64,000 bases of DNA from Raillietiella orientalis. Taxonomy: Eukaryota. Made by a program: the position numbers and the translations under genes. Shown piece by piece: positions 23,520 to 56,899 of this stretch; within the stretch, counting starts at the first letter, position 1, and each line of letters starts with the position of its first letter. Below the pieces are notes generated by a model. The model did not search any database. It saw only the letters and a program-made list of their open reading frames with translations, and was not told where the DNA came from. The stretch is taken from assembly GCA_036172245.1 (NCBI GenBank), contig JAYWIR010000027.1:1984001-2048000 (forward strand), read 5' to 3'.

Positions 23520-24235
23520 ATAGAATTATAGGGTAAGAGGATCCCTAGGCAAAGTGAATTCGCTTCACGTAGTGCAAATGAGGAAGCTACGTAGGGAGCT
23601 GTAGACGCAGTCTAACACCTGGTTGATTGCGAAATCTGGCGAGCCATCCCCGAATGGCAATCTGCTTGCTCCTGCAAAAGAATATGAAGACGAAGCTCTC
23701 TGTTCTGGATTCATTAACAGGCGGAGTTCGAGATTGCCGTATTCGGTCCCAGCGAAGATCTCGGAAAGGATCACTAAGAAACATGCTGACTCTTTCCTCA
23801 GTCTCCCTTTCCGACATCTGGAATGCTTCCCCGAAGGGAGCAGCACGCTTCTTGCACACTGGAGAGGTGGTCATCAATCCACCAGCTCCATGGTACGAGA
23901 GGGAGGTTACCCTCCGAAGGGAAGCATAGCTCCCTTTTCGAAACAAGAGGGGAACAGCTCCGAAGGATTCCTTGATGTCCTGGAAAGACCCCGGAGGGTA
24001 GACTCCCAATCCCGGACATTCATCAGAGGCATCCGGTTTTGTCCTCTACCGATGCCGCAACCGATCAGAAGCCAACCAGCGTCATCGTGCAGGAGGAACC
24101 TCCCTCTCGTACCATGGATGCAGAGGACCCATGGCGCACCCATTTCTCTGGAGTCGATCCTTCCTCAGGAGGGATTCGAACCCGCGACTCGCGGAGACCG
24201 CGCCCACGCGGCCTCCGAAAGCGGGGTTTCTGGCC
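23520..24235 (-). mobile_element. tRNA-derived SINE, diverged copy
   Basis: Perfect B-box on minus (cgcgggttcgaatccc, about 24171-24186). Body motifs ggagaggtggtcatcaatccaccagctccatggtacga and gactcccaatcccgg...catccggttt. Confidence 0.75.
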
Positions 24236-29801: not shown

Positions 29802-31899
29802 CTTTTTTGTGCGCACTCTCCACGGCGCGAAAGCAAAAGGCCCGGGAGATCAGGACGGGACGGAGAGAGGGAGGAAAAGCGAAGGAAAAGAAAACAGGCA
29901 AGAAGGACTGTCTTTGTGGTTGAGGACGGAGGGGGAGGGTTTCCCGTGCCGTCGGGTTTTCTGCGGGATGCCGGCACTCGCGCTCCTCCTGGTGGCGTCC
30001 CCGGCAGGACGGGGAGAATGGCAGGGGGATGCGGGAAGGCCGGAGGAGTGCCGGATCCCTGTCGCCGGTTGCGGCGAGAGTACACCCAGGTTTCCTCCAG
30101 TCGCGTGATGCCCGGACCGCCGAACAGACGGAGAGCTCACGAACAGCGCCTCAATCGGAGGTCCGTGACCTCCGCGACGGCACGGCTATGGACCACTTCA
30201 CCGTCCTCTCTTTCCTTGTGGTTTTCCTGCGCCTGTTCGCACTGGGAGAAGAACCCTCGACGGAGTTTCCCGCAACTTGGGGATGTTGAGCGTCAGCGGA
30301 AGCAGATCCATGGATCCGTGCCCCTGGCGGAGAATCAAGTGCAGGCCGACAAGGGGATCCCCGCGGGCAGGCGGCGCTTTGAGTACCTCCGCGTCAGGCG
30401 ACTCACGCGTAGCGGAGGTGGTTCCGGCGGCTTTCAGATCGAGACGGCTCTCGGCCCGTTCCTAGGTCCTACTGCCGAACGGACCACCACCATCTGCACC
30501 ACCCTTTCCGGTCTCATCTCCGAGCCGTGTTTTCTGTTTTCCCGCTCCCCACATTCGGCAAAGTGACGGCCAAAATTCCTGCTGAGGCAAGTCCCGTGGG
30601 GAGCTACAAGGTCCTCGAACCGTCTGAAGGACCCGATGGCACCGCTGTTTCGGACTAGGACATCCTCGTAGGGATAACCAGGTCTCCTGACCCCCGACAG
30701 GGCTGCCACCCTGAAAGTGTTCCCGGGGGAGCTTCATCCCCTGCGAATTCTCCTCTGCGCACTCTCCGCCGGGAGATGTCTTGCTAAACTGGACGCAGTG
30801 GACTCCAATAGCCGGTCATAACCCTGGCCTCAACGGAGTCTGCCTGAGGGCAGTCAATGGCGACTGCCTGTAAGCGAAATGCCAGCATGCCCTTCACGGC
30901 TGCAGCGCCCTCGAGGGGGCCGCCTCGCCGCATTACCGGCCCACGGGACTCGTTCTGTGGCTTTTCGTTCGGACGCGCTGGGGACCCATTTTGAAAATAA
31001 GGGATACGCAAAAGACGAAGCAGAGAGAAACGACCGGATAAGACGGTTCTTTGGGGATAGCCGAAGAGGCTCGTGCACAGGACGGAGGGGAGGAAGGGGA
31101 AGAGATAGAAAAAGCGCCAGAAGGACTGAACTTGTGGTTGGAGACGGGGGGTGGGGAGAAATGCTACAGGTGGCATACCTGGTTCGACCGTGTACTCGCA
31201 ATCCGCGGCAGGCGGGTGAAATATCAGCAGGCAGGGTCGCCTCGAGACAGCGCTCGAACGGCCGCCCCCGTCGAGGAGATGGCAAACGGACCGAACGGAC
31301 CGAACGAAAGTTCTGCAGCGAGCGGAAAAGGCTGCGCCCGCGCGGGCGCGAACTCCGCCTCTTCGCGAAAAAACGACGGTAGGCCCTTCGCCCACGAAGG
31401 CGCACGTAAGAACACAACACAACACGCGGAAGCGCCGTCTCCGCTCACAAACACCTTCTCGTGACGAAATACCGACCATCTCTCTTCCTCGTTCCTCTAC
31501 GATGCTGGAGCGCTCCGAGAGACGAATCCCGGGTCCTCCCCAAGGTTGCCACGACACGTCGACGAGCGCACACAATCCCCCCCCGTTCCAGCGAGTTCCA
31601 AATTACGAAACGCACGCTCCCGTCCCCTCTTGTTGACGACGCGCAGGGAAGCGCAATCCTCTCACGCGAACGCACAACAGGGCGCTTCCCGCCCCCCCTG
31701 GGCAAGACCCTACACGGAAGCGAACGCGAAGGGCGACTCCCGACGCGCGAGAGAGACACTTGGCGAAGACGGTCTGTCGCAACCTGCTCTCCCCGTGCTC
31801 TGTTGACGTCGGTGGAACAAAAACCTTGACGGCCCGGGAGCGAGCACACGCACCCACCCATCGGCATTCGCACCGTCTCCCCGGCAACGAAACTTTCCG

Positions 31900-32999
31900 C
31901 CAAGTGTGCGCAAGAAATGCTCTTGCATTTCTTGCCCGCGTTCGGCAACCGGCGAGCAAACGAGAGTGCCACCTCGCAGGGTTCCCAGCTCCTCGTTCCA
32001 ACCGCTGCCGCAATCGCCTCCTGGGGCACGGGCGCAGACCAGGTACGTCTTTGCCGCGCCCCTTCCCTTCGTCGCGTTCCTCGGGGCAACCAGCGACGCG
32101 CCTGCTAGCGAACGCGCACGGTGCGGCTGCAGTGCCGGCGGTTGCCGCCTCGGAGGCTCAACGACCGAGAGCCTCCGCCCCGGATCGACAGCGGCTGCCG
32201 CGGACGGAGCCGTCGTCAGGGCCGCCGCTTCCCTGCGTCGGCCACACGGACGACGCGGTCGAGCCGGGACGTTCCGCCGCGGGGGGCACCGCGACACGGC
32301 GCAACGGGCACCAGCCGCTCGCCGTCGCGCCACCGCCGCGCTCGGCTCGCCTCTCGGCGGCCGCCGAGCCGCCGCAACACGCGCCTCGGAAACTGCACAC
32401 GGTCCGGAAAACGCACGCGAGGCGGCACCACCCGCGCCCGCGGACGTCCTTCCGGAAGCTGCACCCGCATTTCTCCATCGGACGCGCTTCGCACCGGCTG
32501 CAAAGGGAAGAGGAAGCAGGCAGACGGCCCTCCTTCGCCACCTTCTTCATCCCACTGCGTGCACGCCAAAGACACGCGCCTTCCGGTCCCGGACCCGTCG
32601 CCACCTCGCCACCTTTCCTCGGGGCAGCTTGCCACGAGCCGCGTCCGGGCGATTGGTCGCAAGCGATGCCCGCGCGCGCCAATCTCCAGTTCCGAAAGCA
32701 GCGGCGACCGCCCCGCTCGTGAAGTCGCTCCTTGCGCGCGCCAACTCTCCCACGCAGCGCAGGGATCGTGAGCACAATCCGCGCCACGGCCGCCTCCACG
32801 CTCGCCCGCACAGCCAGTAGCGACGCCCCAGCGACACGCCTTGCGAGCGCTGCCGCCGACAACGCACCTGCGCCCACCGACGGCCGGGAGCGCGTCTCCC
32901 TGGAGCATCTGAGACCATCCTGCAGACCGCACCTCTTCCCCTGCATTCCAGAAGACCCTCCACGATCGAGCAACCGGAGAGCAGCCGCAGGCGAGGAAA
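31900..32999 (+). promoter_or_regulatory. Putative non-coding 5' exon and first intron of the pepsin-like gene, in very CpG-rich DNA (mirrored at about 50784-51883)
   Basis: Strong donor CAG|GTACGT at 32043 and pyrimidine-rich acceptor ctcttcccctgcattccag at 32951, 48 nt before the ATG. The transcription start is not identified. Confidence 0.4.
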
Positions 33000-35900
33000 A
33001 TGAAGGCTTTGATCCTGGCACTTCTGTTGACGCAGAGCCGCACGCTGTTCGGGAACGACGAGACGTACGCAAGCGCACCGCGCAGCTTCCAACTTCTTCG
33101 ACGGCGGGTATTCGCGCGCTGCGCTTGAGGGGAACCCACCCGGGTGGCCTCCCGAATGCGGCCTCCCGACAGGAACGCCCTACGGGCCTCGGCAAGAGGA
33201 CGAATGGCATCTCCCGTCTCCAACGGCTTCCCGGCACGAGAAGGCGGCCGCCTTGCGGCCTTCCCGCGGTCAGGCCGACAGCAACGTTTCCCTCGCGCCA
33301 AGGCCGCGACGCGACGACGAGGTCGACGTCGAGCTTCTGCGCGGCGTCCTTCCGGCTTTCCCACCCTTGCGCGCAACGGCGGACAGCCCATCCCTCCGGC
33401 TGCAGTCTGCAGGCAGGTCCCGTTCTTCGCAAGGGGTGACGTGCGAAAGGGCGTACGGTCAACGGCCGTTCCGCGCTGCGAACGCAACCGAAGGCGTCCA
33501 CCGGCAATGGCCGCTCGCGCCTTCCTTCAGGTTCGTCGCTCTGGTTCGTCCCCCTCGCGGGGCAAGGCCTCTCGGGAACGCAGGCAAGCCTTCCGCTTCC
33601 CTCCCTTCCGACAAAACACGTGACCTTCCCGGCCGCGCCGAAGAGCGATGGGACAGCGCGTCGTTGCTTTCGCGCGCGGGAGCACTTTGCGGCGAAAGGT
33701 CCTGCCGCCACCGCTCACGGCCATGCGCGCGACCGTGTTTTGCCAACCCAAGTTCCGAGTCCGCTTGCTGCGTGCGGTTTTCGCAGCGATCCCTCCGTCT
33801 TACGCTTTGCGGGCATGGCCATTGCGTGGCGGAAGGTCCGCGTCCTTTTGCTAAGCGACACCCCGCCGTCCGCTGCGAGCACCTCTCGGTTCACCCATGC
33901 CCGGCCTCCTGGTGAAAAGTCGAAGCGCGTGCCACCCGTCGCGCGCGCCGAACGGGACGAGCTGCTCCTCGCCTCCAACCGACGCAAGGGTAGGGGACCG
34001 CCTCCCTTCCTGCTCGTGCGGTGGTCAAGGCGGCGCAGCGAAGGTCGAGCGCTCGCGAGGTTGACGATACGTGGGAATCTACAGCATGGCTTAACGTCCA
34101 TTCAGCATCTGGAAAATACGAACCATTACTGCTACGCCAAAGGTGGTAGTAACCAAGCAGACGGAGAACACCCAATCGACTGTCAGCACCGGGACGAAAG
34201 GACGGACTACCACAACAAGAGCAGGCATGACCGTAGATGACAAAGGACACCAAATCAAGATCCCTATTTGGAAAAAAAACAATGTGAGTCACTTCTGATT
34301 CGAGCTCTCCTTCGCGCCTGGTGCCAAATGGGACCGCTGTCTTCCCGTCGGAAAGTTGCGATTCCCGCCGGCGAGCTCTCCACCTGTTTATCCGTCTCTT
34401 CAGCGGGGCAGGGGCGACAGGCGATTCGAGGCAGGCTCCCGGTGGCACCGTCGCGTTCCCTTTTCCGCACTTGACTTGTATGTGACGCGTGGGTGCCGAA
34501 TCCAACAGGCGCCTCAGCTCGTGCAGCAGTTGCGAGCGTTGGGCGTTCTTCCTCATCGGGAAGAGGTGCGAGTCTTGAGCTGCTGGGCAGAAACCGTCCG
34601 TCCTCCGCGACCGCTGCCATGCGCAGCGGGTGGCTCTGCTTGTAGGTGCGGGCAAAAGGGCACCGGAAGAAGGGGCACCGGCAACGCCGTGCGTGTTGGT
34701 CGCGCGGGAAACGCCGCAGTGCCGGCCGTGTCGGATACGGGCGGAGGCGGACACGGTTGGCGCCGTCTTCTGCGAGACCGCGGCGCGCTCTGCGCATCCG
34801 TCCGATCCGTCCGTCTGGCCGGACGCTGCAAGAGGAAGGCCGTCGAGTCGCGAGGACGCCCGCAGACGGGGGCACGCACGCTCATGTCGAAGTGCGACTC
34901 GCGGCCGGTCCAGCGCACGGACACGAAGTGCGCGCCCGCTGAAGTCACCTGCCAAGTGGGGCTTGCTGGGGACTTCAGCGCTGACCGCTGAGCAGCGCCG
35001 GTTGCCGAATTCCTGAGGAAATTGGCTGCAGCCGACTTGCGGTGAAGCGGAGATGAGCTGCCGGTTTTGCAACTCTGTCTTCGGATGCTTCGAATTTTAT
35101 CCCGTGGTCGCGCCCTCGTTTCCTTCCCGAATCCCGAATTTCTCTTTCGCGGAAGACAAATTTTCAGAAACATCGTGTGTTCCAGATAATCATGCTGGAT
35201 CTGCATGTGGGAATTGCAGATCGGCGTGCGCAGTTCGCGCTTAAAGGCGATCACAGCTATATAGTTATGGAAAGCAATTATCCTGGAAGTGAGTTTCATT
35301 TATCCCTCATGTGCTGTGTATCTTGTGTGCTGTCTTCTCAAGGCCCGTATGAATTTGTGCCCGAGAACTCGGAGTCGTTGCAGTATTTCGAGGATCAGAA
35401 AATCCTCAAGGTGTCAGGCAGACAGTTCTGGGTCCGACTGGTGGAAGACGACCTTCTTGTAAGTGTCCTTGCATGGGCAGCCCGTACAACGGAGTCGCAC
35501 GACGCGGCGCCACTCGAAATTCTCGCACGGTGGCGCCCCGTGCTTTCGCCTCGTCCCGAGAATTTCGTCTTCGACGCGGCAACGACGGTCGACTCACTTC
35601 CGACGCCTGCGCTGGCGTCTGCCGTGAGTGGGCGATCTCAGCTCGTGGCACCGAGCGTCGGGGGTGCGAATCCCCCTTCCTCCTTAATTGAATGATGGAA
35701 GTAGGGAAGTCGGGGTGCTTCGTGGGTTTCGAACTCCTCCGTCAGAGCGCCGCCCCTCGGACTTTATTGTCAGAGGGCGCGGCACAGGCGGAAGTCGGTT
35801 GTCCCCCTCCAAAGACCAGGATTGGAGGTTGATGACCTTCCCGAGTCCTTTCAGGAACGCAGGAGTCGATTCTCTTCATGGTTTCTTACCGGTTTTTAAA

Positions 35901-38807
35901 ATGGAGCGGTCCCTTCCCTCTGCGGATGACCCTCTATTGCGTACCATTGAGCAGGATGGATACCCCTTTCCCAGGGGCTGTCTCTCCAGAGTGTAAGAAG
36001 CGCGTGGCACTCTTCGTTCGGGGAGCAGCTTTTGAGAAAACTGGACTCGTGTCATCGAGGTGGTTTCTCCGAAGGAGGAAACGAAGACCTTGCCCTTCCT
36101 GGGAGGGTTCCCTTCTTAGAAATGAGGGGTGAGGTCCCATTAGAGTTCTTTTCCCAGCGTAAGAGGGAAGGACTCTTTGGTCCGCAACCTTCCTCGATTC
36201 GTCGGGTGGTCTTTTTGGGGCCTCCGCCTGACAAGTGGAGTTACGCGCACCTTCTGGTGACGTGGTCCATGTTGGAGGAGCTCCGTGCGCCCCCCGCAAG
36301 AAGGCGAGAGGTTCTTCAGCGCTTGGCGCCCACCAAAAGGAAGAACAAAAGCCGGAAGGAAAGCAGGGAAAGCAGCAGCAGAATCCGAAAGGAATGTCCA
36401 TCGTCGTTTGCGGTGGTTCGCCTACGTGGAGTGGTCCGTGTCTATCCGCATGAGCAGCGCGATGCATCCGCAGACGGTTCAGCGAATGGCGGCGAGGTAC
36501 CGCGGAATTGCACGCGCACCACCTGCAGACCGCGGGCGTATTCCGCAACGTGTCCGGTGTTGGGCCGTGGGCCGCGCTCGCTCGTTCTGCCACCCAGTGG
36601 TTTGGGGGATTCGCGTCTCTCCACGGCGTGAGGAGGGTCGGCAGAGGAGGACGCAAATCCGGAGAGAGGCACGGCACTTCTCTTGCACTTTCAGATTGAG
36701 GATGTTCTTCTAGTCAACCAGAAATTTTACTCAGTGAGGAGATGCATTGAGCCCTTACTGATGCGGTTTCCTTATATATCCTCCATCGGACTATCCCCTG
36801 GTTTGACTGTTGGGGAGGACCACGGAAATTGCTCATGGTTTTGCAGCATCGCTTCTATGTATCCAGATCTTCCTCCGACTTTCTCGTTGGATTTCGACAG
36901 GTAACAGGCGCGCCGGAAACAGCAGGCCGTTGGCGCTGCGGTGCCAGCAAGCGCTTTGCCGTACCGGCCTTCGTGACGGCTTCGCTTCACCGCCGTTCCG
37001 CGTGAGAACAGCGGTTAAGGACGCTTCCCACATGAGGATTGCAGGACAAGGGGATCGCGTACGGGATAACGTCAGCGAGTTGCAGTCTTGTGTTTGTGGG
37101 AGAGTCGTCCCGGAAGGGCCGCCTGTTGGTAATACGGAATGCAGCAGAATTCGCCTGCTTGCGCCCGCAGGGAAGCTTTTCTCCCAAAGCAATGTTCTAG
37201 CCGCTGCGCGTTCGCATCCATGGGTTTGCGGTTTCCGCTTTCCGAGATCAGATGGCGTGCGCACGGTTTGCGACGAAGGTAGCATCGCTGTCGGCTCTGC
37301 AGGCACTGACGCACTTCCCTCGCATCTGGGTTGGGTCTTCAGGGAGCGTCCGCTTGTGCTCTTGAGGAGAACCAACCGCAGGAAAGGATTCTTCTGCTCC
37401 CCGTGGGCTGGAAGGGGAATGCAAGGGTCAGTGTGGATGCGGTGTGGGGAACGGGTGGGAACCGCACATGAGGCTGAGAGGACTGCAGTTGCGGAGAAAT
37501 AATTGCTACTGAAGGAACCGCACGCACAGGATTTCGGACCAGGGAAAAGCCAGGTCACCCGCGCAACAATCCTCTAGCTGGAAGCTGGACCGCCAGCGAA
37601 GTCTGCTATGACTCTTGATACCCTCTTCCTGGGTCCTGGGACTGCTGGCGCGCCCCCTCGCGCGCGAGAAGCAGGCAGCCTATGCCCGCGCCCTCATCTC
37701 CAGCTGGGGACCACGGTGGCTCTGCCGAGAGCCACGAGTACGCCGCATCCGGGAAGGATCCCGCCGTTCGGCTACGGCGGGTGCGTCGGGGCCTGCAAGC
37801 GCGCACGGCTCTGCACCCGTTTGTCCCCGATCAAGGGCGGACTCAGAAAGGCCAAAGAGCCGGTGAGCAGCGCAGCGCGTAGCTTTCGCCACGCGTCGTC
37901 CAGGACAACTCGCACGTGCGCAGCACTCAAACGTCACCACATTCGCCGCATACGACCCGTGGGTGGTGCCGACGTTTCCCGCCGTCCTCTCGTTGAGATG
38001 GGTTCGTTCCGCGCTCGAGTCGGAACTCCTCTCCCCAGGCACTGCGGGAGGGAATGCGAGTGCCGTCCACTAATGTCGGATGCTTTCCGCGTACTTTGCA
38101 GCCTCCTACGGGGGAATAGAGCAGGGTATTTGGTGTTGGGTCGTGCCGATAGGCTGGGATCGGGCCAGCTGCTAACCATCAGCGTTGGCAACGAATCCAA
38201 GTGGACGTTTCCGGTGCAGAAGTGAGTGTTGTCATGGTCTTTCCGAAGGCGTCTTCTTCCAAGTAGAAACTTCCCTCCCCAGGGTGATGGTGAACTCGGA
38301 AGAGATCTGCAAGGATGGGTGCATTGCGGATGTCGAGTTGGACTTTATGGGCATCGGTCTTTCTCGAACCGATTACGAGGTTTTCCAAAAACTGAGTCAG
38401 ACGAAGATGGTTCCTGTTGCCGAAAAGAGTGATTTAGAGAGAGATGTGGCTGTTACCGGAGACGGCGTGGACGAGGAAGATGAGGTAAGTGGGGAATTCT
38501 GGGGCCCTTGATTTCATGGGGTACGCCAGGGGTCTTGTCTTGCGCTTGAGAGTGCTCCCAAGCTCTCCCTGACTGTGGAAGGGCGAAAGTTGGATTTAAC
38601 TCCCAAAGACTACTACTTTGAGGTGAGTTGGTCGACGCGTCCAGGATACGCAACGGGGAAAGATTTCAGCCCGGCAAAGCTTCGTGCAACTCCTTGGTGA
38701 ACTCGCATCACCCTGAGGACGGCAGGATCGTGTTGGGGGCGGCTTTCCTGAATCGCTATCATGCGGTGTTCAACTTGGAGCAGAAGACGATCAGCATGTA
38801 TATTTGA
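33000..38807 (+). CDS. Secreted pepsin-like (peptidase A1 fold) pseudo-protease, copy 1, 406 aa
   Basis: Nine phase-consistent GT-AG exons: 33000-33064 (signal peptide MKALILALLLTQSRTLFG), 34106-34283 (Thr-rich, ...IKIPIWKKNN), 35186-35288, 35343-35458, 36695-36900, 38102-38221, 38283-38484, 38530-38622, 38670-38807. Total 1221 nt, no internal stop. Colinear A1 landmarks: LDLHVG, VNQKF, IGL, TFSLDF, GYLVLG, WTFPVQKVMV, ICKDGCIA, PKLSLTVEGRKLDLTPKDY, IVLGAAFLNRYHAVFNLEQKTI. AATAAA at 38977. Confidence 0.88.
35615..36190 (+). mobile_element. Diverged SINE in intron 4 of the pepsin-like gene (identical mirror copy at about 47593-48168, minus)
   Basis: Head cgtggcaccgagcgtcgggggtgcgaatccc matches the 14478 head. 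Body includes ggagtcga, gtaccattgagc and ctctccagagtg. Confidence 0.6.
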
Positions 38808-39210
38808 AGAGGTTCCCTTGGAGCACGGTGTCCTTTCGGCGTGCACCTGGTTGGGGTGCCCGTGGCGCACGGTTCGGCGCGCGGATTGTGCGCGCTATCG
38901 CCGGCCGTGCATGCGTCCACGTGGCTCCACTGTCTACAAACGTGTGCTGTGGGGTTGCATACGAGCTTGCACAGGGAATAAAAGTATCTCAAACATGCGG
39001 TTCGGGGATGAATGTGCTGCTTGAACGGTACACCTGGAGCGTGACATTTGGTTCCGTTTTCTTCCGGCGTGACGACTGTCCGTAGGTGATTTCGATACGT
39101 GACCGGGACTGTTCAGCAGTGCGTGGCAGCGGTGGATGGTCGGTGAGTTCGGTCCACGCTGAAGAGTTCACCTTCTGAGAGAGGCCTTTTTGTTGGAACT
39201 CTGCGCACGT
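37591..39210 (+). repeat. Inner inverted-repeat arm B (partner 44647-46266)
   Basis: Position + partner = 83857. Identical ORF translations (38185..38511/45346..45672, 38804..39085/44772..45053). Mismatches seen only in the terminal 20-30 nt at each end. Confidence 0.98.
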
Positions 39211-40199
39211 CCATTGCAGCGGCTGGAGAAATGTGTGAGCGTCGCTGTTCGTGAGCTCTTTTGGGAATGTTTAGGGTAACTTTTTTGTTTTCGAGAGTTT
39301 GTTGTTCTGCGGCTGGAGCTTTGCATGCTGCTGAGGATCAATGGATGCCTGGAACTCTGTCCATTTTTCCCGTTTGCTGCCTTTTTAATTTAATCTAGGA
39401 GGAAGACTAAGGGACTGTACATTGCCCTTGAGTTGGCTGATCCAGCAGCAGAATTTCTCGCGCTGGTAGCCTAACATATGTGCCATACGGCCGTTTGCCG
39501 AGGTCTACTAGAAGAGTGGACAGCTAAGTGCGTTGAAAACCTCACACAGTTGAAGAATGGTCGGCTACAAGCTGCCCCTTTTCTTGCAGTGCATCCATTT
39601 CGCATTTGTCGGTTTGTGCGTCGGAACAGAGCTTTTGGAGTTGCTGGTAATGTGAGTGGGTTCTGGGTTGGGGGGCGTGAAGCGCTTGCTGCCTCTGACC
39701 CTGCCGAAGAGTGGGTGCACCTGCCGTCCCAAGTCCATCGCAATTCATTGTTTTCCTTGATATGGCGTAAATAGGAAGAGTTCGTGTGGAAATCTCCTCC
39801 GTGGTTTTTGGCCTCTGCTACCTTCCCTCTGGTTTCATCATCCCTTAATGGGGTTGCTATGCAGTCAGTGGTTCTAGTGGGCAGACGCGTCTTTTCTGAG
39901 AGACGTCAAGAAGGGAAGAAAGCGGGGAGCTTCGTAGGGTGAGGTGCCGCCACGTGTCGAAAGAAGCCTGCAGGAGTTCTTTAGCGGGAAATCAGGGAGA
40001 AGGAGGAGGAGGAGGATGGCCGGGTTGCGCAGCCGCCTACCATGGGATCTGCCTCGAGCGGTCGCTCTGGGGTCGTCGGGCCAAGCAACTAATTCTCCCC
40101 CATACGGAAAGTCTTCCTCAGGAGTCCTCTGCGATGGGCGGTTCCCCCTCCAAACCGCCTGCCAATGCTGGGGACTTGCAGTGCGCACGGTAAGGGCAA

Positions 40200-40880
40200 G
40201 GGTCTTCCGCATCCTCCCTGATCCGTGTCTCTGCAACCCGTTCCTCTCACTCTGGGGGGGATTCTCGAAGGGAACAGCCACCATGATTGTCTCCTAAGGG
40301 AACTACCCCTTCTTTGTTCCTGTAGGGGCTGCTTCTTGTTTCTTCTCCGAAGGGGACCCGGAAAGAATCCGCTAGTGGAATCTCTTCTCTGAAGAAATCC
40401 CCACTCCTTGTTTACTTCTCTGAAGATAAACGCCGAAGGGACGCCTCCTTATTCCTCTGAAGGACGCTCCCTGAAGGAAGTGGCGCACTTCTTGGCACTC
40501 CGGAGAGGTCATCAATCCACCAGCTCCGTGGTGCGAGATGCGGGGCCCTCTCCCCCGAGGGAGAAAGGACGGCTACATCTTCAGCACCGGGGTGGAACCC
40601 CGAAGGACTCCTCGATTCCTGTCAGGACCCTGGAGGAGTGTCGACTTCCCATCCCAGCCAGTCGACGGGGAGGGGGGCATACGGGGGTTTCCAGTTTCCA
40701 CTAGTGCCTCCGCATCCGAAGCTCGTGGACCAACCAGCATCATCCTGCGGGGCGGAGACTCGAAACCCATGACTAACCTTCCCCCTCATCCCAATTCTTG
40801 GCGTCGATGGTCCACGTTGGGATTCGAACTTGCAACTCTTGGCGCCACACGCGGCGGCGACCGCAACCGCTGATACGGGC
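40200..40880 (-). mobile_element. tRNA-derived SINE in the palindrome spacer
   Basis: Minus-strand B-box gttcgaatccc (about 40819-40829). Body cttctccgaaggggacccggaaagaatccgctagt and ggagaggtcatcaatccaccagctcc. Confidence 0.75.
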
Positions 40881-42759
40881 GGGCTTAGCTCTGACGCAAG
40901 CAGCCTGAGAGCCGTCACCTCCCCTCCTCGAGATCCTTGGGTTTTCGGCCGTATCGGCTCTCGGAAGGCCTCTCGAGGGACGAAATGTGCCGCCCTCAAC
41001 GCGCGCAAGCGATCCCGGATGCCGAGCACGGAACTTCACGGTGCGGCAGCAAGTGGGACTGCGCTTGGGGAATCTAGGGGTTATGGTCGAGAAGCTGCCG
41101 GGTGCCGTTGCAGAAGTCTCGAGATCATCTCACAGGAACAATCGGGCTCAGACAACGCGCGGCAAAAACAAAACGGGGGGAAGACGTAAGAGATCTGGCG
41201 ACGCCCTTACCAGTCGAGAACCCCACGAAGAAGGGGGGGTGGGGGAATTCTTTTTTCTTACATGGGACGTGGCAGGGATGCACGCTTGCCATATCGACTC
41301 AGCACCGCTCCCTCTGGGAAGGCGGGCGGACGTCGGACCGATAGGGAAAAAGTAAGCAGCGCGTTAGAAGCTCGAGAAGTATTGCGCTGGAGTGACCGAC
41401 TCGATGGCCCGTGGCGACGTAACTCGCGAATCTTGCAAGCATCAAACTCCATCCTAAGTGTCATTGATTTCGTCATCCCTGGGATCCGAAGGCAACGGCG
41501 ACTGTTCGCTCCATCCCGAAGTCGCGCGCGCTCCCGGCCACTCCACAGCAGCGCCGGGGACCTGCCACACTTGACCTCGGAGAAGCGGGCTCGAACCAGG
41601 GTTGGCGCACAAGGACCCGGAGCACGTCGTCGTCGCTTCGTCCAGGGTGGCGGCGAGCGCTACGGCCACGCTAGGTGGCACGGCGCGTCGCCATTGCCTC
41701 CTCGACATACCGAAGCAGCAGTCCGAGTTCTCTTGAGCGTCTTGCCGCTGCTCACATGAGGAGGGATCTCGCGCTTCCTCAGAAGACAGGGCTCCTGCGA
41801 CGGCAAACGGGAGAGACCGTTTCCTTCCTCTTTCCTCTTCATAGCCCCTGATTCGGGACCGCCTCTCCTCCCTCGCATAGGCAGGAGTGTGTCGAGTAGG
41901 AAGGCTCCAGGCTTTTCTTCGAAAGCAGAAAGTAAGGTAGAATCTTGGCCTCCTGGGACTGTTCGGTTTGTGTCGTCCCTGTGGATGTTTTTTTTTTTTT
42001 TGATCTGCTTCCATAGTGACCAGATGGTTGTGCCTCCAGGCAAAGAAGATCGACTTCCGCACGATCGCGCGATCCGGGACGACCACTAGTGCGTCGAGGA
42101 CCCGCCTTGCACGTTCGCCGTTGCTCCTTGCGGGCGACACCCGCAAGAGGGAGACGAGGCCTGTACAAAAATCGCGTGGGTGTACGAAGCTGTCCCCACA
42201 GGCCAGGGACCACGCCGTGCTTCCTTGCATTGGGATAGAATTTGTTCCCAAGGCAAGTTCACGCCTCCTGCCTTTCACCAGAGGTGACTCCCCGGATTCC
42301 GTTCCTAATCCAGCATCTTCCGATGCCGAGAACCCTTGAAAATCTCACCCCGTCCCACCAGATGCTTGGAGACCTGCTCACCCGCTTGCTAAGCGCCCCA
42401 CTGCTTGGGTCGGTCGTCCTTTCGGACGAAGTACCCTCCGAGGTCTGCGCTCGAGGTTGCTGGCCGAGTTCCTCTTGTGGCTGCCGAGCGTAGAATGGTC
42501 CTATGGAAGTCCACGAAGACTCGATCCGGAAGTGCTGGAGGCTGGAGGGAGCTGTGCAAGGCTATCTCGCCGGTCTTGTGGACGGAGATGTCCCTTTGCA
42601 GAGGAAAAAACAAAATCTGCCAAGCAGCCCAGAAACGGCAAGCCAATCCTGCCTTCAATCTCTTGCAGCATCGGGGTACATCTACGTGGAGAAACGTGCC
42701 CTGGCCACGGTAGTTTTATGCGCAAAGAAAGCCGAAAACCGGATTCCTCGTGTCGACTG

Positions 42760-43020
42760 ACCAAGAATGTATGTCAACCCCCCTACGGGGCCCTTTTAGG
42801 AGTTCTCCTGGGTTTCCCTACTGTTGTGCGAACGGCAACATCTTCCTTACCTCCCCCCACCCCCCCTCCGGGGGAAAGGCCCCTCCGTCGCACCATGGAA
42901 CTGATGGATATCTCCCTCGGGAAGTGGTTGCCTCTCCAGAGTGTCAAAGAGCTCCCTTCAGAGGAGTGGCAGGGAGCGATTGCCTTGCGGTTCCTCCGGA
43001 GAACAAATCCCAAGCAGGAA
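42760..43020 (+). mobile_element. SINE internal fragment
   Basis: caccatggaactgatggat...cctctccagagtg...ggttcctccggagaacaaat is the reverse complement of the family body. Confidence 0.55.
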
Positions 43021-44646
43021 GTCCGGAGCTTTCAGAGCATTCTGATCCTGAGATCTGCGAAGGAAATGGTTGTTGTAAACCGCCATATGCTCTCTCCGTG
43101 TCCAAAGAGAAGAGGTCTGAAGTGTGAGACTGACCTTTGCACATTTCCTTCAGGGGTTCCAAGACATCCCACAAAAAAAAAGAACGGAAACTTGCAGGCA
43201 TTTTCTTTAGGAAAAAAAAAAGCTGATTTTTAAAATTAGAAAAAAAAATGGCAGCCAGCAGAAAACTCTTCTCCGTGTGACGTCTGCTTTCACCTGGAGA
43301 ATTCCGTTGCTTTCCGGACCGTCAGTGCTGGGTTGGCCTCAGAAAAGGAGAAAATAAAAGGAACGAGAGATACGAGCATCAGCTTCCTTTTGTCGAGCGG
43401 AAGATGCATTCACGTGACAGAGAGGGGACGAAGACGGCAACGCTGACCGGGAAACTCGCGCGAACCCTTTCCTCCACAGCTCGTTTGGATGTCCCGATTT
43501 TTCGACATTTCCCTGCTTGCGGCTGTCTTTCGTCAGGGGATCCAAATAAATCATTCGCACCCAGACTTCAAAGAGCGCACCTTTGTCTTGGCTAAAAGAA
43601 GGCTTCCCAAGGACACTGCCAAGAAATCATCTGAAATCATCCTTCAATCCTGCAATCCCCCTTCTTCCGCGAAACGTGCACCCACGCCAACCTGCTCCTG
43701 CGTTCACCCAGGGGCACAGCTGCAGAAAGAATCCCATCCAACAGATGTCCATAAGAAACACCTTGAGGAGCGCAGTTGCTTTGCAGATGGACGCTTCTGT
43801 TGAAGAAGCGTCCATCGAGGATCGCAGCATCTTGTGGGGAGTTTTCATTCGGAAAGGAAGCAGGTATTCCAAATAAAGAAACAAATACAAAGCATTTATT
43901 TTTCTCAGAAGGGGTTTCCATCGCACTTTTCCGTTAGAATCCCGCTAGGAAAGGCGTGTCGACGGGATATCTCCGTTTGCTTACGTCTCTTTTTCAGGAT
44001 TCCCTATTAAAACGGGAGACAAAGCAGCGTTGCGCAAACGGAACAAGCGTGCACGTCTTAGCGGGCAATAGTCCTCTTTGGTAAGGGAAGGACGAAGGCG
44101 AGGGGAACGTGAGCGCTTTCAGCAGAGGGCCCGCGTTCCTCTAGCCATCAAGACTAGAGGACAGCGGCGCAGCTCTTCGAAGGAATCGGGTCTCCCCAGC
44201 TGTCGAAGCGGATGCTTTCCTCATCCGAGACAAAGGTCAGGGAACTGTCTTCTTCCGCTCAGATACAGTTCACCTCTTGTCCCTTAAGAAAGGGCATTCG
44301 AAGCCAACAGGCAACCTGAAAAGTCCCGAGCAGCCGCGAGCTGGTCAATGTAAGACCACCAAAACGACATCCATCTCACAGAAACCTGCGTCAGCATGCA
44401 TTGGAAAGTGAAGGACAATAACCACATCGTCAGCAAGCAACACGATCCTAAGACGGAAGACTTTGTGAAGACCACGAACCAAGCGCCCAAGGGAGTGTTG
44501 ATCTGTGGGAATGAAGCACTCCGTTCAAATAGCGCTTCATAAGCCTTTCCCTAGAAAAAGAAAGTTCCCGAAAGGACGTACACAAACAAACCATAACTCG
44601 TTCAACTCCGTATCCCACTTTTATTCGTACAACAGAACGGCTGTCC

Positions 44647-46266
44647 ACGTGTGCAGAGTTCCAACAAAAAGCCCTCTCTCAGAAGGTGAACTCTTCAGCG
44701 TGGACCGAACTCACCGACCATCCACCGCTGCCACGCACTGCTGAACAGTCCCGGTCACGTATCGAAATCACCTACGGACAGTCGTCACGCCGGAAGAAAA
44801 CGGAACCAAATGTCACGCTCCAGGTGTACCGTTCAAGCAGCACATTCATCCCCGAACCGCATGTTTGAGATACTTTTATTCCCTGTGCAAGCTCGTATGC
44901 AACCCCACAGCACACGTTTGTAGACAGTGGAGCCACGTGGACGCATGCACGGCCGGCGATAGCGCGCACAATCCGCGCGCCGAACCGTGCGCCACGGGCA
45001 CCCCAACCAGGTGCACGCCGAAAGGACACCGTGCTCCAAGGGAACCTCTTCAAATATACATGCTGATCGTCTTCTGCTCCAAGTTGAACACCGCATGATA
45101 GCGATTCAGGAAAGCCGCCCCCAACACGATCCTGCCGTCCTCAGGGTGATGCGAGTTCACCAAGGAGTTGCACGAAGCTTTGCCGGGCTGAAATCTTTCC
45201 CCGTTGCGTATCCTGGACGCGTCGACCAACTCACCTCAAAGTAGTAGTCTTTGGGAGTTAAATCCAACTTTCGCCCTTCCACAGTCAGGGAGAGCTTGGG
45301 AGCACTCTCAAGCGCAAGACAAGACCCCTGGCGTACCCCATGAAATCAAGGGCCCCAGAATTCCCCACTTACCTCATCTTCCTCGTCCACGCCGTCTCCG
45401 GTAACAGCCACATCTCTCTCTAAATCACTCTTTTCGGCAACAGGAACCATCTTCGTCTGACTCAGTTTTTGGAAAACCTCGTAATCGGTTCGAGAAAGAC
45501 CGATGCCCATAAAGTCCAACTCGACATCCGCAATGCACCCATCCTTGCAGATCTCTTCCGAGTTCACCATCACCCTGGGGAGGGAAGTTTCTACTTGGAA
45601 GAAGACGCCTTCGGAAAGACCATGACAACACTCACTTCTGCACCGGAAACGTCCACTTGGATTCGTTGCCAACGCTGATGGTTAGCAGCTGGCCCGATCC
45701 CAGCCTATCGGCACGACCCAACACCAAATACCCTGCTCTATTCCCCCGTAGGAGGCTGCAAAGTACGCGGAAAGCATCCGACATTAGTGGACGGCACTCG
45801 CATTCCCTCCCGCAGTGCCTGGGGAGAGGAGTTCCGACTCGAGCGCGGAACGAACCCATCTCAACGAGAGGACGGCGGGAAACGTCGGCACCACCCACGG
45901 GTCGTATGCGGCGAATGTGGTGACGTTTGAGTGCTGCGCACGTGCGAGTTGTCCTGGACGACGCGTGGCGAAAGCTACGCGCTGCGCTGCTCACCGGCTC
46001 TTTGGCCTTTCTGAGTCCGCCCTTGATCGGGGACAAACGGGTGCAGAGCCGTGCGCGCTTGCAGGCCCCGACGCACCCGCCGTAGCCGAACGGCGGGATC
46101 CTTCCCGGATGCGGCGTACTCGTGGCTCTCGGCAGAGCCACCGTGGTCCCCAGCTGGAGATGAGGGCGCGGGCATAGGCTGCCTGCTTCTCGCGCGCGAG
46201 GGGGCGCGCCAGCAGTCCCAGGACCCAGGAAGAGGGTATCAAGAGTCATCGCAGAGTTCGTTAGCG
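44647..46266 (-). repeat. Inner inverted-repeat arm B'
   Basis: Reverse complement of 37591-39210. Confidence 0.98.
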
Positions 46267-49200
46267 ATGCGGATTGCCAAGAGGTTCCTTCGCGTTGTGT
46301 TGCACGGCAAGCACGAGCTGCGGATTCGCTGGAGGAGAGCAGTCGAAACCTGAAGCTGCCAGGAAGGCCGAGTGCGAAGCGGAAGCGCGTCACTGCTTCC
46401 TGCAGCCCCATCTCCGCGCGATCGCCGAGTCATGGGACCCGACGGAAGAGGATGCAGCTCCCTTATCTCTCCCCGGGAACGCATTCGTCAGGGGGCAGTA
46501 ACGCCCTAATGGAGCCGATGGAAGCCATGAGGGCCAGCCACTGTCCCGGTACCAGTGGCGAAGAAACACGTACACACAGGAGAACGCTGCGTAGGACTCC
46601 TGCGGCATCTCCACCCACGAGATTCCAGCCAGACGGGCAGACCGGCGGAAGCGACCCGCACATCATAACAGCAGAATAGCCGTATGAAAGTTAAGGACTC
46701 CGATCGGAAGCGCGGCGCTTGGGTGGAGCAGAGGTCTTTCCCCTGCACGATCATTCGGCATTACAGGCCTTCATAGCAGCGGGACGAAGAAAATCGGAGC
46801 GAGCAAATTCCTTCTCATTGACATCAGAAAAGGTTCTCGTATTGCTGCGCAGACGCCCTTCTATTCGCGGCGCGCCGGTTACCTGCCGAAATCAAACGAG
46901 AAGGTCGAAGGAAGATCTGGATACATAGAAGCGATGCTGCAAAACCATGAGCAATTTCCGTGGTCCTCCCCCACCGTCAAACCAGGGGACAGTCCGATTT
47001 CTGCGTAGTAAAACAAGAACATCCTTTCGGGATCCATACATGAAATCGCTGAGTAAAATTTCTGGTTGACTAGAAGAACATCCTCAATCTGAAAGTGCAA
47101 GAGAAGTGCCGTGCCTCTCTCCGGATTTGCGTCCTCCTCTGCCGACCCTCCTCACGCCGTGGAGAGACGCGAATCCCCCAAACCACTGGGTGGCAGAACG
47201 AGCGAGCGCGGCCCACGGCCCAACACCGGACACGTTGCGGAATACGCCCGCGGTCTGCAGGTGGTGCGCGTGCAATTCCGCGGTACCTCGCCGCCATTCG
47301 CTGAACCGTCTGCGGATGCATCGCGCTGCTCATGCGGATAGACACGGACCACTCCACGTAGGCGAACCACCGCAAACGACGATGGACATTCCTTTCGGAT
47401 TCTGCTGCTGCTTTCCCTGCTTTCCTTCCGGCTTTTGTTCTTCCTTTTGGTGGGCGCCAAGCGCTGAAGAACCTCTCGCCTTCTTGCGGGGGGCGCACGG
47501 AGCTCCTCCAACATGGACCACGTCACCAGAAGGTGCGCGTAACTCCACTTGTCAGGCGGAGGCCCCAAAAAGACCACCCGACGAATCGAGGAAGGTTGCG
47601 GACCAAAGAGTCCTTCCCTCTTACGCTGGGAAAAGAACTCTAATGGGACCTCACCCCTCATTTCTAAGAAGGGAACCCTCCCAGGAAGGGCAAGGTCTTC
47701 GTTTCCTCCTTCGGAGAAACCACCTCGATGACACGAGTCCAGTTTTCTCAAAAGCTGCTCCCCGAACGAAGAGTGCCACGCGCTTCTTACACTCTGGAGA
47801 GACAGCCCCTGGGAAAGGGGTATCCATCCTGCTCAATGGTACGCAATAGAGGGTCATCCGCAGAGGGAAGGGACCGCTCCATTTTAAAAACCGGTAAGAA
47901 ACCATGAAGAGAATCGACTCCTGCGTTCCTGAAAGGACTCGGGAAGGTCATCAACCTCCAATCCTGGTCTTTGGAGGGGGACAACCGACTTCCGCCTGTG
48001 CCGCGCCCTCTGACAATAAAGTCCGAGGGGCGGCGCTCTGACGGAGGAGTTCGAAACCCACGAAGCACCCCGACTTCCCTACTTCCATCATTCAATTAAG
48101 GAGGAAGGGGGATTCGCACCCCCGACGCTCGGTGCCACGAGCTGAGATCGCCCACTCACGGCAGACGCCAGCGCAGGCGTCGGAAGTGAGTCGACCGTCG
48201 TTGCCGCGTCGAAGACGAAATTCTCGGGACGAGGCGAAAGCACGGGGCGCCACCGTGCGAGAATTTCGAGTGGCGCCGCGTCGTGCGACTCCGTTGTACG
48301 GGCTGCCCATGCAAGGACACTTACAAGAAGGTCGTCTTCCACCAGTCGGACCCAGAACTGTCTGCCTGACACCTTGAGGATTTTCTGATCCTCGAAATAC
48401 TGCAACGACTCCGAGTTCTCGGGCACAAATTCATACGGGCCTTGAGAAGACAGCACACAAGATACACAGCACATGAGGGATAAATGAAACTCACTTCCAG
48501 GATAATTGCTTTCCATAACTATATAGCTGTGATCGCCTTTAAGCGCGAACTGCGCACGCCGATCTGCAATTCCCACATGCAGATCCAGCATGATTATCTG
48601 GAACACACGATGTTTCTGAAAATTTGTCTTCCGCGAAAGAGAAATTCGGGATTCGGGAAGGAAACGAGGGCGCGACCACGGGATAAAATTCGAAGCATCC
48701 GAAGACAGAGTTGCAAAACCGGCAGCTCATCTCCGCTTCACCGCAAGTCGGCTGCAGCCAATTTCCTCAGGAATTCGGCAACCGGCGCTGCTCAGCGGTC
48801 AGCGCTGAAGTCCCCAGCAAGCCCCACTTGGCAGGTGACTTCAGCGGGCGCGCACTTCGTGTCCGTGCGCTGGACCGGCCGCGAGTCGCACTTCGACATG
48901 AGCGTGCGTGCCCCCGTCTGCGGGCGTCCTCGCGACTCGACGGCCTTCCTCTTGCAGCGTCCGGCCAGACGGACGGATCGGACGGATGCGCAGAGCGCGC
49001 CGCGGTCTCGCAGAAGACGGCGCCAACCGTGTCCGCCTCCGCCCGTATCCGACACGGCCGGCACTGCGGCGTTTCCCGCGCGACCAACACGCACGGCGTT
49101 GCCGGTGCCCCTTCTTCCGGTGCCCTTTTGCCCGCACCTACAAGCAGAGCCACCCGCTGCGCATGGCAGCGGTCGCGGAGGACGGACGGTTTCTGCCCAG

Positions 49201-50783
49201 CAGCTCAAGACTCGCACCTCTTCCCGATGAGGAAGAACGCCCAACGCTCGCAACTGCTGCACGAGCTGAGGCGCCTGTTGGATTCGGCACCCACGCGTCA
49301 CATACAAGTCAAGTGCGGAAAAGGGAACGCGACGGTGCCACCGGGAGCCTGCCTCGAATCGCCTGTCGCCCCTGCCCCGCTGAAGAGACGGATAAACAGG
49401 TGGAGAGCTCGCCGGCGGGAATCGCAACTTTCCGACGGGAAGACAGCGGTCCCATTTGGCACCAGGCGCGAAGGAGAGCTCGAATCAGAAGTGACTCACA
49501 TTGTTTTTTTTCCAAATAGGGATCTTGATTTGGTGTCCTTTGTCATCTACGGTCATGCCTGCTCTTGTTGTGGTAGTCCGTCCTTTCGTCCCGGTGCTGA
49601 CAGTCGATTGGGTGTTCTCCGTCTGCTTGGTTACTACCACCTTTGGCGTAGCAGTAATGGTTCGTATTTTCCAGATGCTGAATGGACGTTAAGCCATGCT
49701 GTAGATTCCCACGTATCGTCAACCTCGCGAGCGCTCGACCTTCGCTGCGCCGCCTTGACCACCGCACGAGCAGGAAGGGAGGCGGTCCCCTACCCTTGCG
49801 TCGGTTGGAGGCGAGGAGCAGCTCGTCCCGTTCGGCGCGCGCGACGGGTGGCACGCGCTTCGACTTTTCACCAGGAGGCCGGGCATGGGTGAACCGAGAG
49901 GTGCTCGCAGCGGACGGCGGGGTGTCGCTTAGCAAAAGGACGCGGACCTTCCGCCACGCAATGGCCATGCCCGCAAAGCGTAAGACGGAGGGATCGCTGC
50001 GAAAACCGCACGCAGCAAGCGGACTCGGAACTTGGGTTGGCAAAACACGGTCGCGCGCATGGCCGTGAGCGGTGGCGGCAGGACCTTTCGCCGCAAAGTG
50101 CTCCCGCGCGCGAAAGCAACGACGCGCTGTCCCATCGCTCTTCGGCGCGGCCGGGAAGGTCACGTGTTTTGTCGGAAGGGAGGGAAGCGGAAGGCTTGCC
50201 TGCGTTCCCGAGAGGCCTTGCCCCGCGAGGGGGACGAACCAGAGCGACGAACCTGAAGGAAGGCGCGAGCGGCCATTGCCGGTGGACGCCTTCGGTTGCG
50301 TTCGCAGCGCGGAACGGCCGTTGACCGTACGCCCTTTCGCACGTCACCCCTTGCGAAGAACGGGACCTGCCTGCAGACTGCAGCCGGAGGGATGGGCTGT
50401 CCGCCGTTGCGCGCAAGGGTGGGAAAGCCGGAAGGACGCCGCGCAGAAGCTCGACGTCGACCTCGTCGTCGCGTCGCGGCCTTGGCGCGAGGGAAACGTT
50501 GCTGTCGGCCTGACCGCGGGAAGGCCGCAAGGCGGCCGCCTTCTCGTGCCGGGAAGCCGTTGGAGACGGGAGATGCCATTCGTCCTCTTGCCGAGGCCCG
50601 TAGGGCGTTCCTGTCGGGAGGCCGCATTCGGGAGGCCACCCGGGTGGGTTCCCCTCAAGCGCAGCGCGCGAATACCCGCCGTCGAAGAAGTTGGAAGCTG
50701 CGCGGTGCGCTTGCGTACGTCTCGTCGTTCCCGAACAGCGTGCGGCTCTGCGTCAACAGAAGTGCCAGGATCAAAGCCTTCAT
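45050..50783 (-). CDS. Secreted pepsin-like pseudo-protease, copy 2, 406 aa
   Basis: Exons 50719-50783, 49500-49677, 48495-48597, 48325-48440, 46883-47088, 45636-45755, 45373-45574, 45235-45327, 45050-45187. Same as copy 1 except 16 residues, all in exon 5. Splice sites and frame are intact. Confidence 0.88.
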
Positions 50784-52543
50784 TTTCCTCGCCTGCGGCT
50801 GCTCTCCGGTTGCTCGATCGTGGAGGGTCTTCTGGAATGCAGGGGAAGAGGTGCGGTCTGCAGGATGGTCTCAGATGCTCCAGGGAGACGCGCTCCCGGC
50901 CGTCGGTGGGCGCAGGTGCGTTGTCGGCGGCAGCGCTCGCAAGGCGTGTCGCTGGGGCGTCGCTACTGGCTGTGCGGGCGAGCGTGGAGGCGGCCGTGGC
51001 GCGGATTGTGCTCACGATCCCTGCGCTGCGTGGGAGAGTTGGCGCGCGCAAGGAGCGACTTCACGAGCGGGGCGGTCGCCGCTGCTTTCGGAACTGGAGA
51101 TTGGCGCGCGCGGGCATCGCTTGCGACCAATCGCCCGGACGCGGCTCGTGGCAAGCTGCCCCGAGGAAAGGTGGCGAGGTGGCGACGGGTCCGGGACCGG
51201 AAGGCGCGTGTCTTTGGCGTGCACGCAGTGGGATGAAGAAGGTGGCGAAGGAGGGCCGTCTGCCTGCTTCCTCTTCCCTTTGCAGCCGGTGCGAAGCGCG
51301 TCCGATGGAGAAATGCGGGTGCAGCTTCCGGAAGGACGTCCGCGGGCGCGGGTGGTGCCGCCTCGCGTGCGTTTTCCGGACCGTGTGCAGTTTCCGAGGC
51401 GCGTGTTGCGGCGGCTCGGCGGCCGCCGAGAGGCGAGCCGAGCGCGGCGGTGGCGCGACGGCGAGCGGCTGGTGCCCGTTGCGCCGTGTCGCGGTGCCCC
51501 CCGCGGCGGAACGTCCCGGCTCGACCGCGTCGTCCGTGTGGCCGACGCAGGGAAGCGGCGGCCCTGACGACGGCTCCGTCCGCGGCAGCCGCTGTCGATC
51601 CGGGGCGGAGGCTCTCGGTCGTTGAGCCTCCGAGGCGGCAACCGCCGGCACTGCAGCCGCACCGTGCGCGTTCGCTAGCAGGCGCGTCGCTGGTTGCCCC
51701 GAGGAACGCGACGAAGGGAAGGGGCGCGGCAAAGACGTACCTGGTCTGCGCCCGTGCCCCAGGAGGCGATTGCGGCAGCGGTTGGAACGAGGAGCTGGGA
51801 ACCCTGCGAGGTGGCACTCTCGTTTGCTCGCCGGTTGCCGAACGCGGGCAAGAAATGCAAGAGCATTTCTTGCGCACACTTGGCGGAAAGTTTCGTTGCC
51901 GGGGAGACGGTGCGAATGCCGATGGGTGGGTGCGTGTGCTCGCTCCCGGGCCGTCAAGGTTTTTGTTCCACCGACGTCAACAGAGCACGGGGAGAGCAGG
52001 TTGCGACAGACCGTCTTCGCCAAGTGTCTCTCTCGCGCGTCGGGAGTCGCCCTTCGCGTTCGCTTCCGTGTAGGGTCTTGCCCAGGGGGGGCGGGAAGCG
52101 CCCTGTTGTGCGTTCGCGTGAGAGGATTGCGCTTCCCTGCGCGTCGTCAACAAGAGGGGACGGGAGCGTGCGTTTCGTAATTTGGAACTCGCTGGAACGG
52201 GGGGGGATTGTGTGCGCTCGTCGACGTGTCGTGGCAACCTTGGGGAGGACCCGGGATTCGTCTCTCGGAGCGCTCCAGCATCGTAGAGGAACGAGGAAGA
52301 GAGATGGTCGGTATTTCGTCACGAGAAGGTGTTTGTGAGCGGAGACGGCGCTTCCGCGTGTTGTGTTGTGTTCTTACGTGCGCCTTCGTGGGCGAAGGGC
52401 CTACCGCCGTTTTTTCGCGAAGAGGCGGAGTTCGCGCCCGCGCGGGCGCAGCCTTTTCCGCTCGCTGCAGAACTTTCGTTCGGTCCGTTCGGTCCGTTTG
52501 CCATCTCCTCGACGGGGGCGGCCGTTCGAGCGCTGCCTCGAGG
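46868..52543 (-). repeat. Outer inverted-repeat arm A'
   Basis: Reverse complement of 31240-36915. Confidence 0.98.
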
Positions 52544-56894: not shown

Positions 56895-56899
56895 GATCT

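Follow-up and report, generated by a model that had tools for sequence, protein, structure and literature searches.

Why should two copies of a gene that are alike over most of their length differ at nearly every residue of one short run of codons? The question is raised by a pair of predicted genes in Raillietiella orientalis, found on contig JAYWIR010000027.1 of assembly GCA_036172245.1 within a stretch of 64,000 nucleotides (nt) of the forward strand (positions 1,984,001 to 2,048,000), hereafter the window, in which coordinates are counted from the first letter. The initial annotation singled out a patch of 17 codons in these genes, placed it at the substrate-cleft loop of a pepsin-like protein and attributed its divergence to diversifying selection on ligand specificity. 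The divergence of the patch is real and statistically striking. Rapid adaptive evolution by diversifying point substitution within it is not demonstrated by the sequences, and the pattern around the patch suggests that it may be the sharpest part of an old divergence island in a palindromic gene pair kept alike by arm-to-arm conversion, a reading given here roughly an even chance of being correct.

Re-reading and aligning both sites confirmed the letters, coordinates and translations reported earlier for the two variants of the patch:

36734-36784, plus strand: patch variant 1, in gene copy 1, 17 codons, VRRCIEPLLMRFPYISS
46999-47049, minus strand: patch variant 2, in gene copy 2, 17 codons, AISCMDPERMFLFYYAE

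The two lie on opposite strands and form an inverted pair, the strand of copy 2 having been absent from the initial annotation. The alignment bore out the replacement of 13 of the 17 residues between the variants with no insertion or deletion, together with the retention of C, P, M and Y in both, with C (TGC/TGT) and Y (TAT/TAC) written in different synonymous codons. At the nucleotide level the variants agree at 24 of 51 positions, such that 27 bases differ, with identity spread evenly over the three codon positions (9, 8 and 7 of 17). Set against 0 differences in the 200 nt to the left and 16 in the 155 nt to the right, the 27 differences in 51 nt are highly significant (Fisher p = 2e-17), as they are against the right side alone (Fisher p = 1.3e-9). 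The earlier term hypervariable is too strong for a comparison of two sequences (n = 2).

The peptides encoded by the two variants can be compared in register, where they give a BLOSUM62 total of 15 that was matched by 297 of 100,000 shuffles. Patch residues 1-10 supply this score's significance (808 of 100,000 shuffles), with residues 11-17 taken alone having no significant in-register similarity (26,970 of 100,000). The identical or conservative positions are Cys, I/M, E/D, Pro, Met, F/L and Tyr, and in the second half of the patch conserved and variable positions alternate, as they might in a strand with one buried face. In keeping with the earlier idea of a conserved Cys anchor, a common scaffold that includes this Cys is retained in both variants, each of which codes for protein in the frame of its exon. 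In-register homology of the peptides marks the patch as homologous DNA that has diverged, as opposed to filler.

The patch lies within a large inverted repeat that encloses both gene copies:

31223-39210, plus strand: arm 1 of the inverted repeat (palindrome), pairing with arm 2 and carrying gene copy 1, which is read left to right
44647-52560, minus strand: arm 2 of the inverted repeat, carrying gene copy 2, in convergent orientation to copy 1
39211-44646, no strand assigned: unique spacer of 5,436 nt between the arms

The arms are approximately 8 kilobases (kb) each and inverted about the unique spacer, with an arm identity above 99% outside a single island. Identity is perfect over 5,358 nt (31377-36734), introns and upstream non-coding DNA included, and again over 1,577 nt (37608-39184), the sole exception being the island at 36735-37607 (copy 1), about 870 nt in length. 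That the sequence upstream is identical up to the codon preceding the patch had been recorded earlier and is correct, but it is no sign of coding constraint, as the identity runs for 5,358 nt and takes in non-coding DNA. With introns and non-coding DNA identical too, the upstream identity is attributable to homogenisation, and the identical stretch would represent a gene-conversion or recent-duplication tract that ends at the patch.

The island itself comprises three parts, namely the patch, a 155-nt segment of 90% identity and an intron core that cannot be aligned, the last two having the following limits:

36785-36939, plus strand, paired with 46844-46998: valley of intermediate divergence, made up of the exon remainder and about 39 nt of the intron start
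36940-37581, plus strand: intron core of copy 1, 642 nt
46276-46843, minus strand: intron core of copy 2, 568 nt

In the exon part of the valley, 113 of 120 positions are identical, with the differences falling mostly at third positions. The intron cores have no detectable homology to each other and no match elsewhere in the window, and a repeat or transposon origin for them is unsupported. Counted per 15 nt, identity falls through the patch from 12 to 10, 7 and 4 before returning to 14 of 15 from 36785, drops stepwise into the intron (12, 10, 9, 5, 3) and climbs back stepwise at 37575-37619 (7, 11, 14). The arms begin and end abruptly, at their outer and inner limits alike.

Diversifying selection by amino-acid substitution, as proposed for the patch by the initial annotation, found no backing in Nei-Gojobori counts of the proportions of silent (pS) and replacement (pN) differences between variant 1 and variant 2. 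Across the patch pS was 0.49 and pN 0.54, with a ratio of replacement to silent substitution rates (dN/dS) of about 1.2, such that silent sites are as saturated as replacement sites, and in the right third of the patch the values (pS 0.82, pN 0.69) are at the random level. In the exon remainder past the patch pS was 0.155 and pN 0.034. Silent sites in the patch have thus diverged about three times as far as those of the adjoining exon, which points to a separate and deeper history and not to surplus replacements. The comparison of replacement and silent changes between patch and flank was not significant (Fisher p = 0.06). Moreover, dN/dS between two paralogues is misleading where conversion has reset the flanks.

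What is to be explained therefore is the presence side by side of at least three levels of divergence, zero in the arms, a pS of 0.155 in the exon remainder and a pS of 0.49 in the patch. The graded edges of the island favour many tract ends over one replacement event. In the reading that the patch is a relic between conversion tracts, such tracts would have swept the arms repeatedly, with one recent tract stopping at the left edge of the patch and an older, short tract renewing the 155 nt to its right, while the 51-nt patch and the intron core would never have been overwritten. The patch would then display the deep age of the pair, with silent and replacement sites saturated and only the scaffold residues left. 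It may have escaped, with about equal likelihood, either because convertants that lost the difference were selected against or because the density of mismatches blocks the extension of heteroduplex; a mechanical stop to tracts could also come from the non-homologous intron core, at a distance of 155 nt. If selection against convertants were the route, the two proteins would differ functionally in a single surface segment.

A local divergence peak in duplicates under ongoing conversion is described as a footprint of selection against convertants, with human red/green opsin exon 5 and the Drosophila transporter pair CG18281-CG17637 as examples (PMC3924837, PMC2588116) and a similar idea put forward for Tigriopus GOT1 (PMC3728101). 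The patch has one of the features by which such cases are recognised in the Teshima-Innan scheme, being a local peak of coding divergence that is significant against both flanks and carries 13 amino-acid differences. Under a model of selection against conversion, pS close to pN in the peak is expected because linked neutral sites diverge too, and the model appears to fit the pattern without proving selection. The arms are also richer in guanine and cytosine (GC) than their surroundings (0.614, compared with 0.548 in the spacer and 0.57 in the flanks), as expected if conversion is GC-biased, with most of the excess residing in the upstream non-coding part.

A number of points weigh against the relic reading. 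Conversion is deduced here from the pattern of one sequence, and a very recent duplication would look no different from ongoing homogenisation; the abrupt outer and inner arm ends likewise fit a young segmental duplication. At 51 nt the peak is narrower than typical conversion tracts, and its position between two independent tract ends means that either selection or a heterology barrier is required. The adjoining unalignable intron core could itself be that barrier with the patch as a bystander, and a patch dN/dS of about 1.2 provides no positive evidence of selection.

The alternatives have to account for the same combination of a saturated patch, a lightly diverged valley and identical arms. 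The proposal of a recent duplication followed by intense diversifying selection, in which some two dozen point substitutions accumulated in a 17-codon ligand-contact loop with the rest of the gene unchanged, is quite unlikely. It is consistent with the replacement of 13 of 17 residues, often with radical changes of charge, while length, frame and Cys were kept, and with the ratio of about 5 that results when the patch dN (0.95) is divided by the flank dS (0.17) as a neutral yardstick; the unforced third positions, judged by eye, differ at 3 of 9 in the patch, which is not clearly above the 5 of 40 in the flank. Nevertheless, selection on amino acids does not explain why pS equals pN or why the right third is random for both. 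Nine of the codons have two or three changed positions (by eye) and would need chains of selected intermediates, the next 38 whole codons to the exon end took 3 replacements in equal time, the identical 5.4 kb upstream holds non-coding DNA and so offers no evidence of constraint, and the contrast of patch and flank reached the non-significant p value given above. A single short ectopic conversion from a distant, unseen paralogue into one arm of a young duplication would achieve saturation at every codon position in one step, and it accounts for the in-register peptide homology, the abrupt right edge at 36784/36785 and the zero divergence elsewhere in the arms. It is nonetheless considered unlikely: no third paralogue was detected in the window by tblastn, the weak match in an open reading frame (ORF) at 56726-57811 lacks Pfam support, the right end of the island is graded and lies mid-intron, where an old paralogue should not regain homology, and a single tract cannot yield a valley at 90% identity together with two saturated blocks.

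An assembly artefact, in which the arms are two haplotypes of one gene misplaced as an inverted duplication or in which differences between the arms have been polished away to leave only the strongly divergent segments, is suggested by the unusual juxtaposition of zero differences over 5,358 and 1,577 nt with a segment diverged by 10%. The window however has no N, both the flanks of the arms, which lie mid-contig, and their 5.4-kb spacer are unique, and frame, splice sites and scaffold residues are intact in both variants, so that the patch is not sequencing noise; an artefact is accordingly regarded as improbable, and in its haplotype version the patch would still be a real and deep polymorphism. 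That the right half of variant 2 was copied from neighbouring sequence by a template switch or templated repair is very improbable. The candidate templates were an 11-mer at the start of the variant 2 exon and an inverted 17-of-21 match in the copy 2 intron. In a first test these two matches were reached by 1 of 500 and 3 of 500 shuffles, with variant 1 having none, and 3 of the 4 mismatches of the inverted match are transitions (by eye). With dinucleotide shuffles and the four targets taken together, however, 60 of 2,000 reached the score, 44 of 343 control 51-mers drawn from unique stretches of the window matched their own flanks equally well, and the whole patch is homologous in register even though residues 11-17 alone are not. 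The templated origin of variant 2 was rejected after these stricter shuffle and 51-mer controls.

Local inversion was likewise discarded, variant 2 matching the reverse complement of variant 1 over no more than 5 nt, as was a donor within the window, where only k-mers at chance level were found and the ORF at 56726-57811 had no Pfam match. The inverted 17-of-21 match pairs 46999-47020, in the right half of the patch, with 46833-46853 in the copy 2 intron, some 30-50 nt past the donor. Such a match could allow pairing within the pre-mRNA of copy 2, although it was not significant by the controls and has no counterpart in copy 1.

The gene that carries the patch can be followed from the patch exon to the stop as a chain of five exons that holds in both copies, with all introns GT-AG and 252 open codons:

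36695-36900, plus strand: patch exon of copy 1, with AG acceptor and GT donor, its last two bases belonging to a split codon
46883-47088, minus strand: patch exon of copy 2, splice sites and open frame checked
38102-38221, plus strand (copy 1), and 45636-45755, minus strand (copy 2): exon 2, GT-AG, continuous frame
38283-38484, plus strand (copy 1), and 45373-45574, minus strand (copy 2): exon 3, with a Cys-x3-Cys pair, an acidic insert and no D[TS]G
38530-38622, plus strand (copy 1), and 45235-45327, minus strand (copy 2): exon 4, 31 residues, pepsin-family segment of the C-terminal lobe (C-lobe)
38670-38807, plus strand (copy 1), and 45050-45187, minus strand (copy 2): last exon with stop, pepsin-family C-terminal motif

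The predicted proteins are identical at 236 of 252 residues, the differences being the 13 in the patch and 3 others. The introns are 1,201, 61, 45 and 47 nt long, three very short introns (38222-38669) thus standing beside one of 1,201 nt, and several of the acceptors are of the TTTCAG type.

Membership of the pepsin family was assessed through Pfam and PDB matches obtained exon by exon, on contiguous translations. The last exon matched the Pfam Asp profile (PF00026) at positions 273-312 of 315 with 19.4 bits (E = 8e-4), below the cut-off of 19.9, and the TAXi_C profile more weakly (E = 0.006), with none of the scanned exons reaching the curated Pfam cut-off for family A1. All three PDB matches of the last exon were to aspartic proteinases, at residues 297-327. 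Likewise, all four PDB matches of exon 4 were to pepsin-family chains (E = 0.014-0.47, cardosin A being the best at E = 0.014), with the exon aligning to residues 261-287 or 283-309 of cathepsin D-like chains. Exon 4 and the last exon are collinear with solved family members, agreeing in order and spacing. Exon 2 alone had no PDB or Pfam match, exon 3 alone had no pepsin match, and the patch exon resembled neither the Asp profile nor any solved pepsin-family chain to a detectable degree. The comparisons thus back a pepsin-family likeness for the C-lobe only.

The cysteines of the spliced C-terminal part are in keeping with this. Conserved in pepsin-family C-lobes are a tight disulfide loop ahead of the second active-site position and another disulfide that joins residues about 33 apart. 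Cysteines occur here at 118/122 and 179/213, presumably corresponding to these two bonds by their spacing. The 252 residues encoded between the start of the patch exon and the stop contain no D[TS]G motif, and a pepsin-like fold here would be one that has lost its second catalytic site. By spacing, six of the seven cysteines in these 252 residues make three plausible pairs (46/50, 118/122 and 179/213), and the odd seventh is the retained Cys of the patch (36740-36742, Cys 17 of the spliced C-terminal part), which may have its partner in the N-terminal part of the protein or be free.

The position that the initial annotation assigned to the patch, at the loop lining the S1/S3 pockets, can be approached by counting back from the matched exons, which would place the patch roughly at residues 97-131 of a pepsin-like chain and is compatible with the S1/S3 loop, no more. 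An N-terminal lobe (N-lobe) gave no Asp signal among 41 upstream plus-strand ORF fragments of at least 35 amino acids, and a sequence-database look-up of a candidate N-lobe exon returned only noise. An N-lobe catalytic motif picked out by eye in an upstream ORF was withdrawn, the ORF having a weak resemblance to ETS domains (E = 0.034). This ETS-like open frame, at 35345-35623 (plus strand) and mirrored in arm 2, has a consensus GTGAGT donor; 14 of its 19 PDB matches were to ETS DNA-binding domains, the best at E = 0.034 and with the halves in permuted order, and the Pfam Ets profile was not matched. The resemblance may be due to chance, or the frame may belong to a distinct or decayed gene that precedes the pepsin-like exons.

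Relatives of the gene were sought in several ways. Neither the patch exon nor the last exon retrieved any by word-index search, a profile built from the two patch exons gave 0 matches at E <= 0.001 when run exhaustively with HMMER against 1.84 billion representatives, and two scans of metagenome contigs yielded no confirmed relative.

These properties allow a more specific, though unlikely, version of the conversion reading, in which the palindrome would be a two-cassette system where conversion keeps two orphan, catalytically dead pepsin-fold copies alike and selection guards a 17-residue surface segment, so providing two binding specificities. Pregnancy-associated glycoproteins of ruminants exhibit adaptive variation in the loops around the cleft. 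With these glycoproteins and the wheat TAXI-type xylanase inhibitors the gene shares a pepsin-like C-lobe without a canonical catalytic motif, the weak TAXi_C match noted above being a further likeness to the TAXI-type inhibitors. Unlike such inactive pepsin-fold binders, it has no detected N-lobe similarity in the scanned exons and upstream ORFs, no relatives in the representatives searched with the patch-exon profile and a patch dN that is not above dS.

The closest parallels to the locus as a whole come from duplicates under conversion. As in the Teshima-Innan cases, near-identical converted duplicates have a narrow coding peak set in flanks of low divergence. Unlike that of the Drosophila pair, at more than 15% per 200 bp, the peak here reaches a raw difference of 53% in 51 nt and is saturated, and it differs from those cases further in having flanks at zero divergence and a second, non-coding block of non-homology 155 nt away. 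Palindromes with an arm identity above 99.9% are reported to be maintained by conversion (PMC3723533, PMC8600007). The present locus resembles the palindromes of the mammalian Y and X chromosomes in its inverted arms, unique spacer, identity above 99.9%, arm-borne genes and GC-richer arms (PMC3723533, PMC8600007, PMC8981503). Its arms are about 8 kb, compared with tens of kb to Mb in those accounts, and a deep divergence island inside the arms is a feature of this locus that the abstracts of these papers do not mention for the mammalian palindromes.

Further observations concern the arms and the remainder of the window. The outer 3.8 kb of the arms (31223-35000 and, in mirror image, 48783-52560) has a GC content of 0.66, up to 0.69 per 2 kb, and an observed-to-expected CpG ratio of about 1.2, and long open stretches occur in each of the six reading frames. 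The ORFs scanned there had zero Pfam matches at E <= 0.001, with only noise on the plus strand at E <= 10, and this GC-rich DNA may be promoter-like or CpG-island-like sequence or a product of GC-biased conversion. Long ORFs scanned in the spacer likewise had no Pfam match. An AT-rich island at 16000-24000 has a GC content of 0.31-0.40 and an observed-to-expected CpG ratio of 0.49-0.67, compared with about 0.55 and about 0.9-1.2 in the surrounding DNA, with a sharp jump on both sides. It carries an exon of an animal-type inositol monophosphatase at 19810-20145 (minus strand; 104 bits to mammalian IMPA1) and a second such exon, recognised by eye only, in the ORF at 16633-16890, and it may represent an isochore-like domain, a housekeeping gene under methylation or a segment of foreign or chimeric origin. 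The minus strand at 1414-2402 carries an adenylate/guanylate cyclase catalytic domain split over two exons (Pfam E = 5e-27 and 4e-8), and its closest database relatives are animal membrane adenylate cyclases, at only 37-41% identity. By their similarities, the monophosphatase and cyclase genes give a hint, no more, of an animal or a close relative of animals as the source of the DNA. No Rfam families or tRNAs were found in the window.

The locus is best filed as another case of a known phenomenon, namely a divergence island in duplicates evolving in concert. Were the patch an unconverted relic or a by-product of the intron heterology, it would be an ordinary feature of duplicated genes. If selection holds the patch apart, the locus would mark a specificity determinant of an uncharacterised protein without recourse to biochemistry and would represent an unusually sharp instance of neofunctionalisation under concerted evolution, in which a saturated 51-nt peak stands between flanks of zero divergence.

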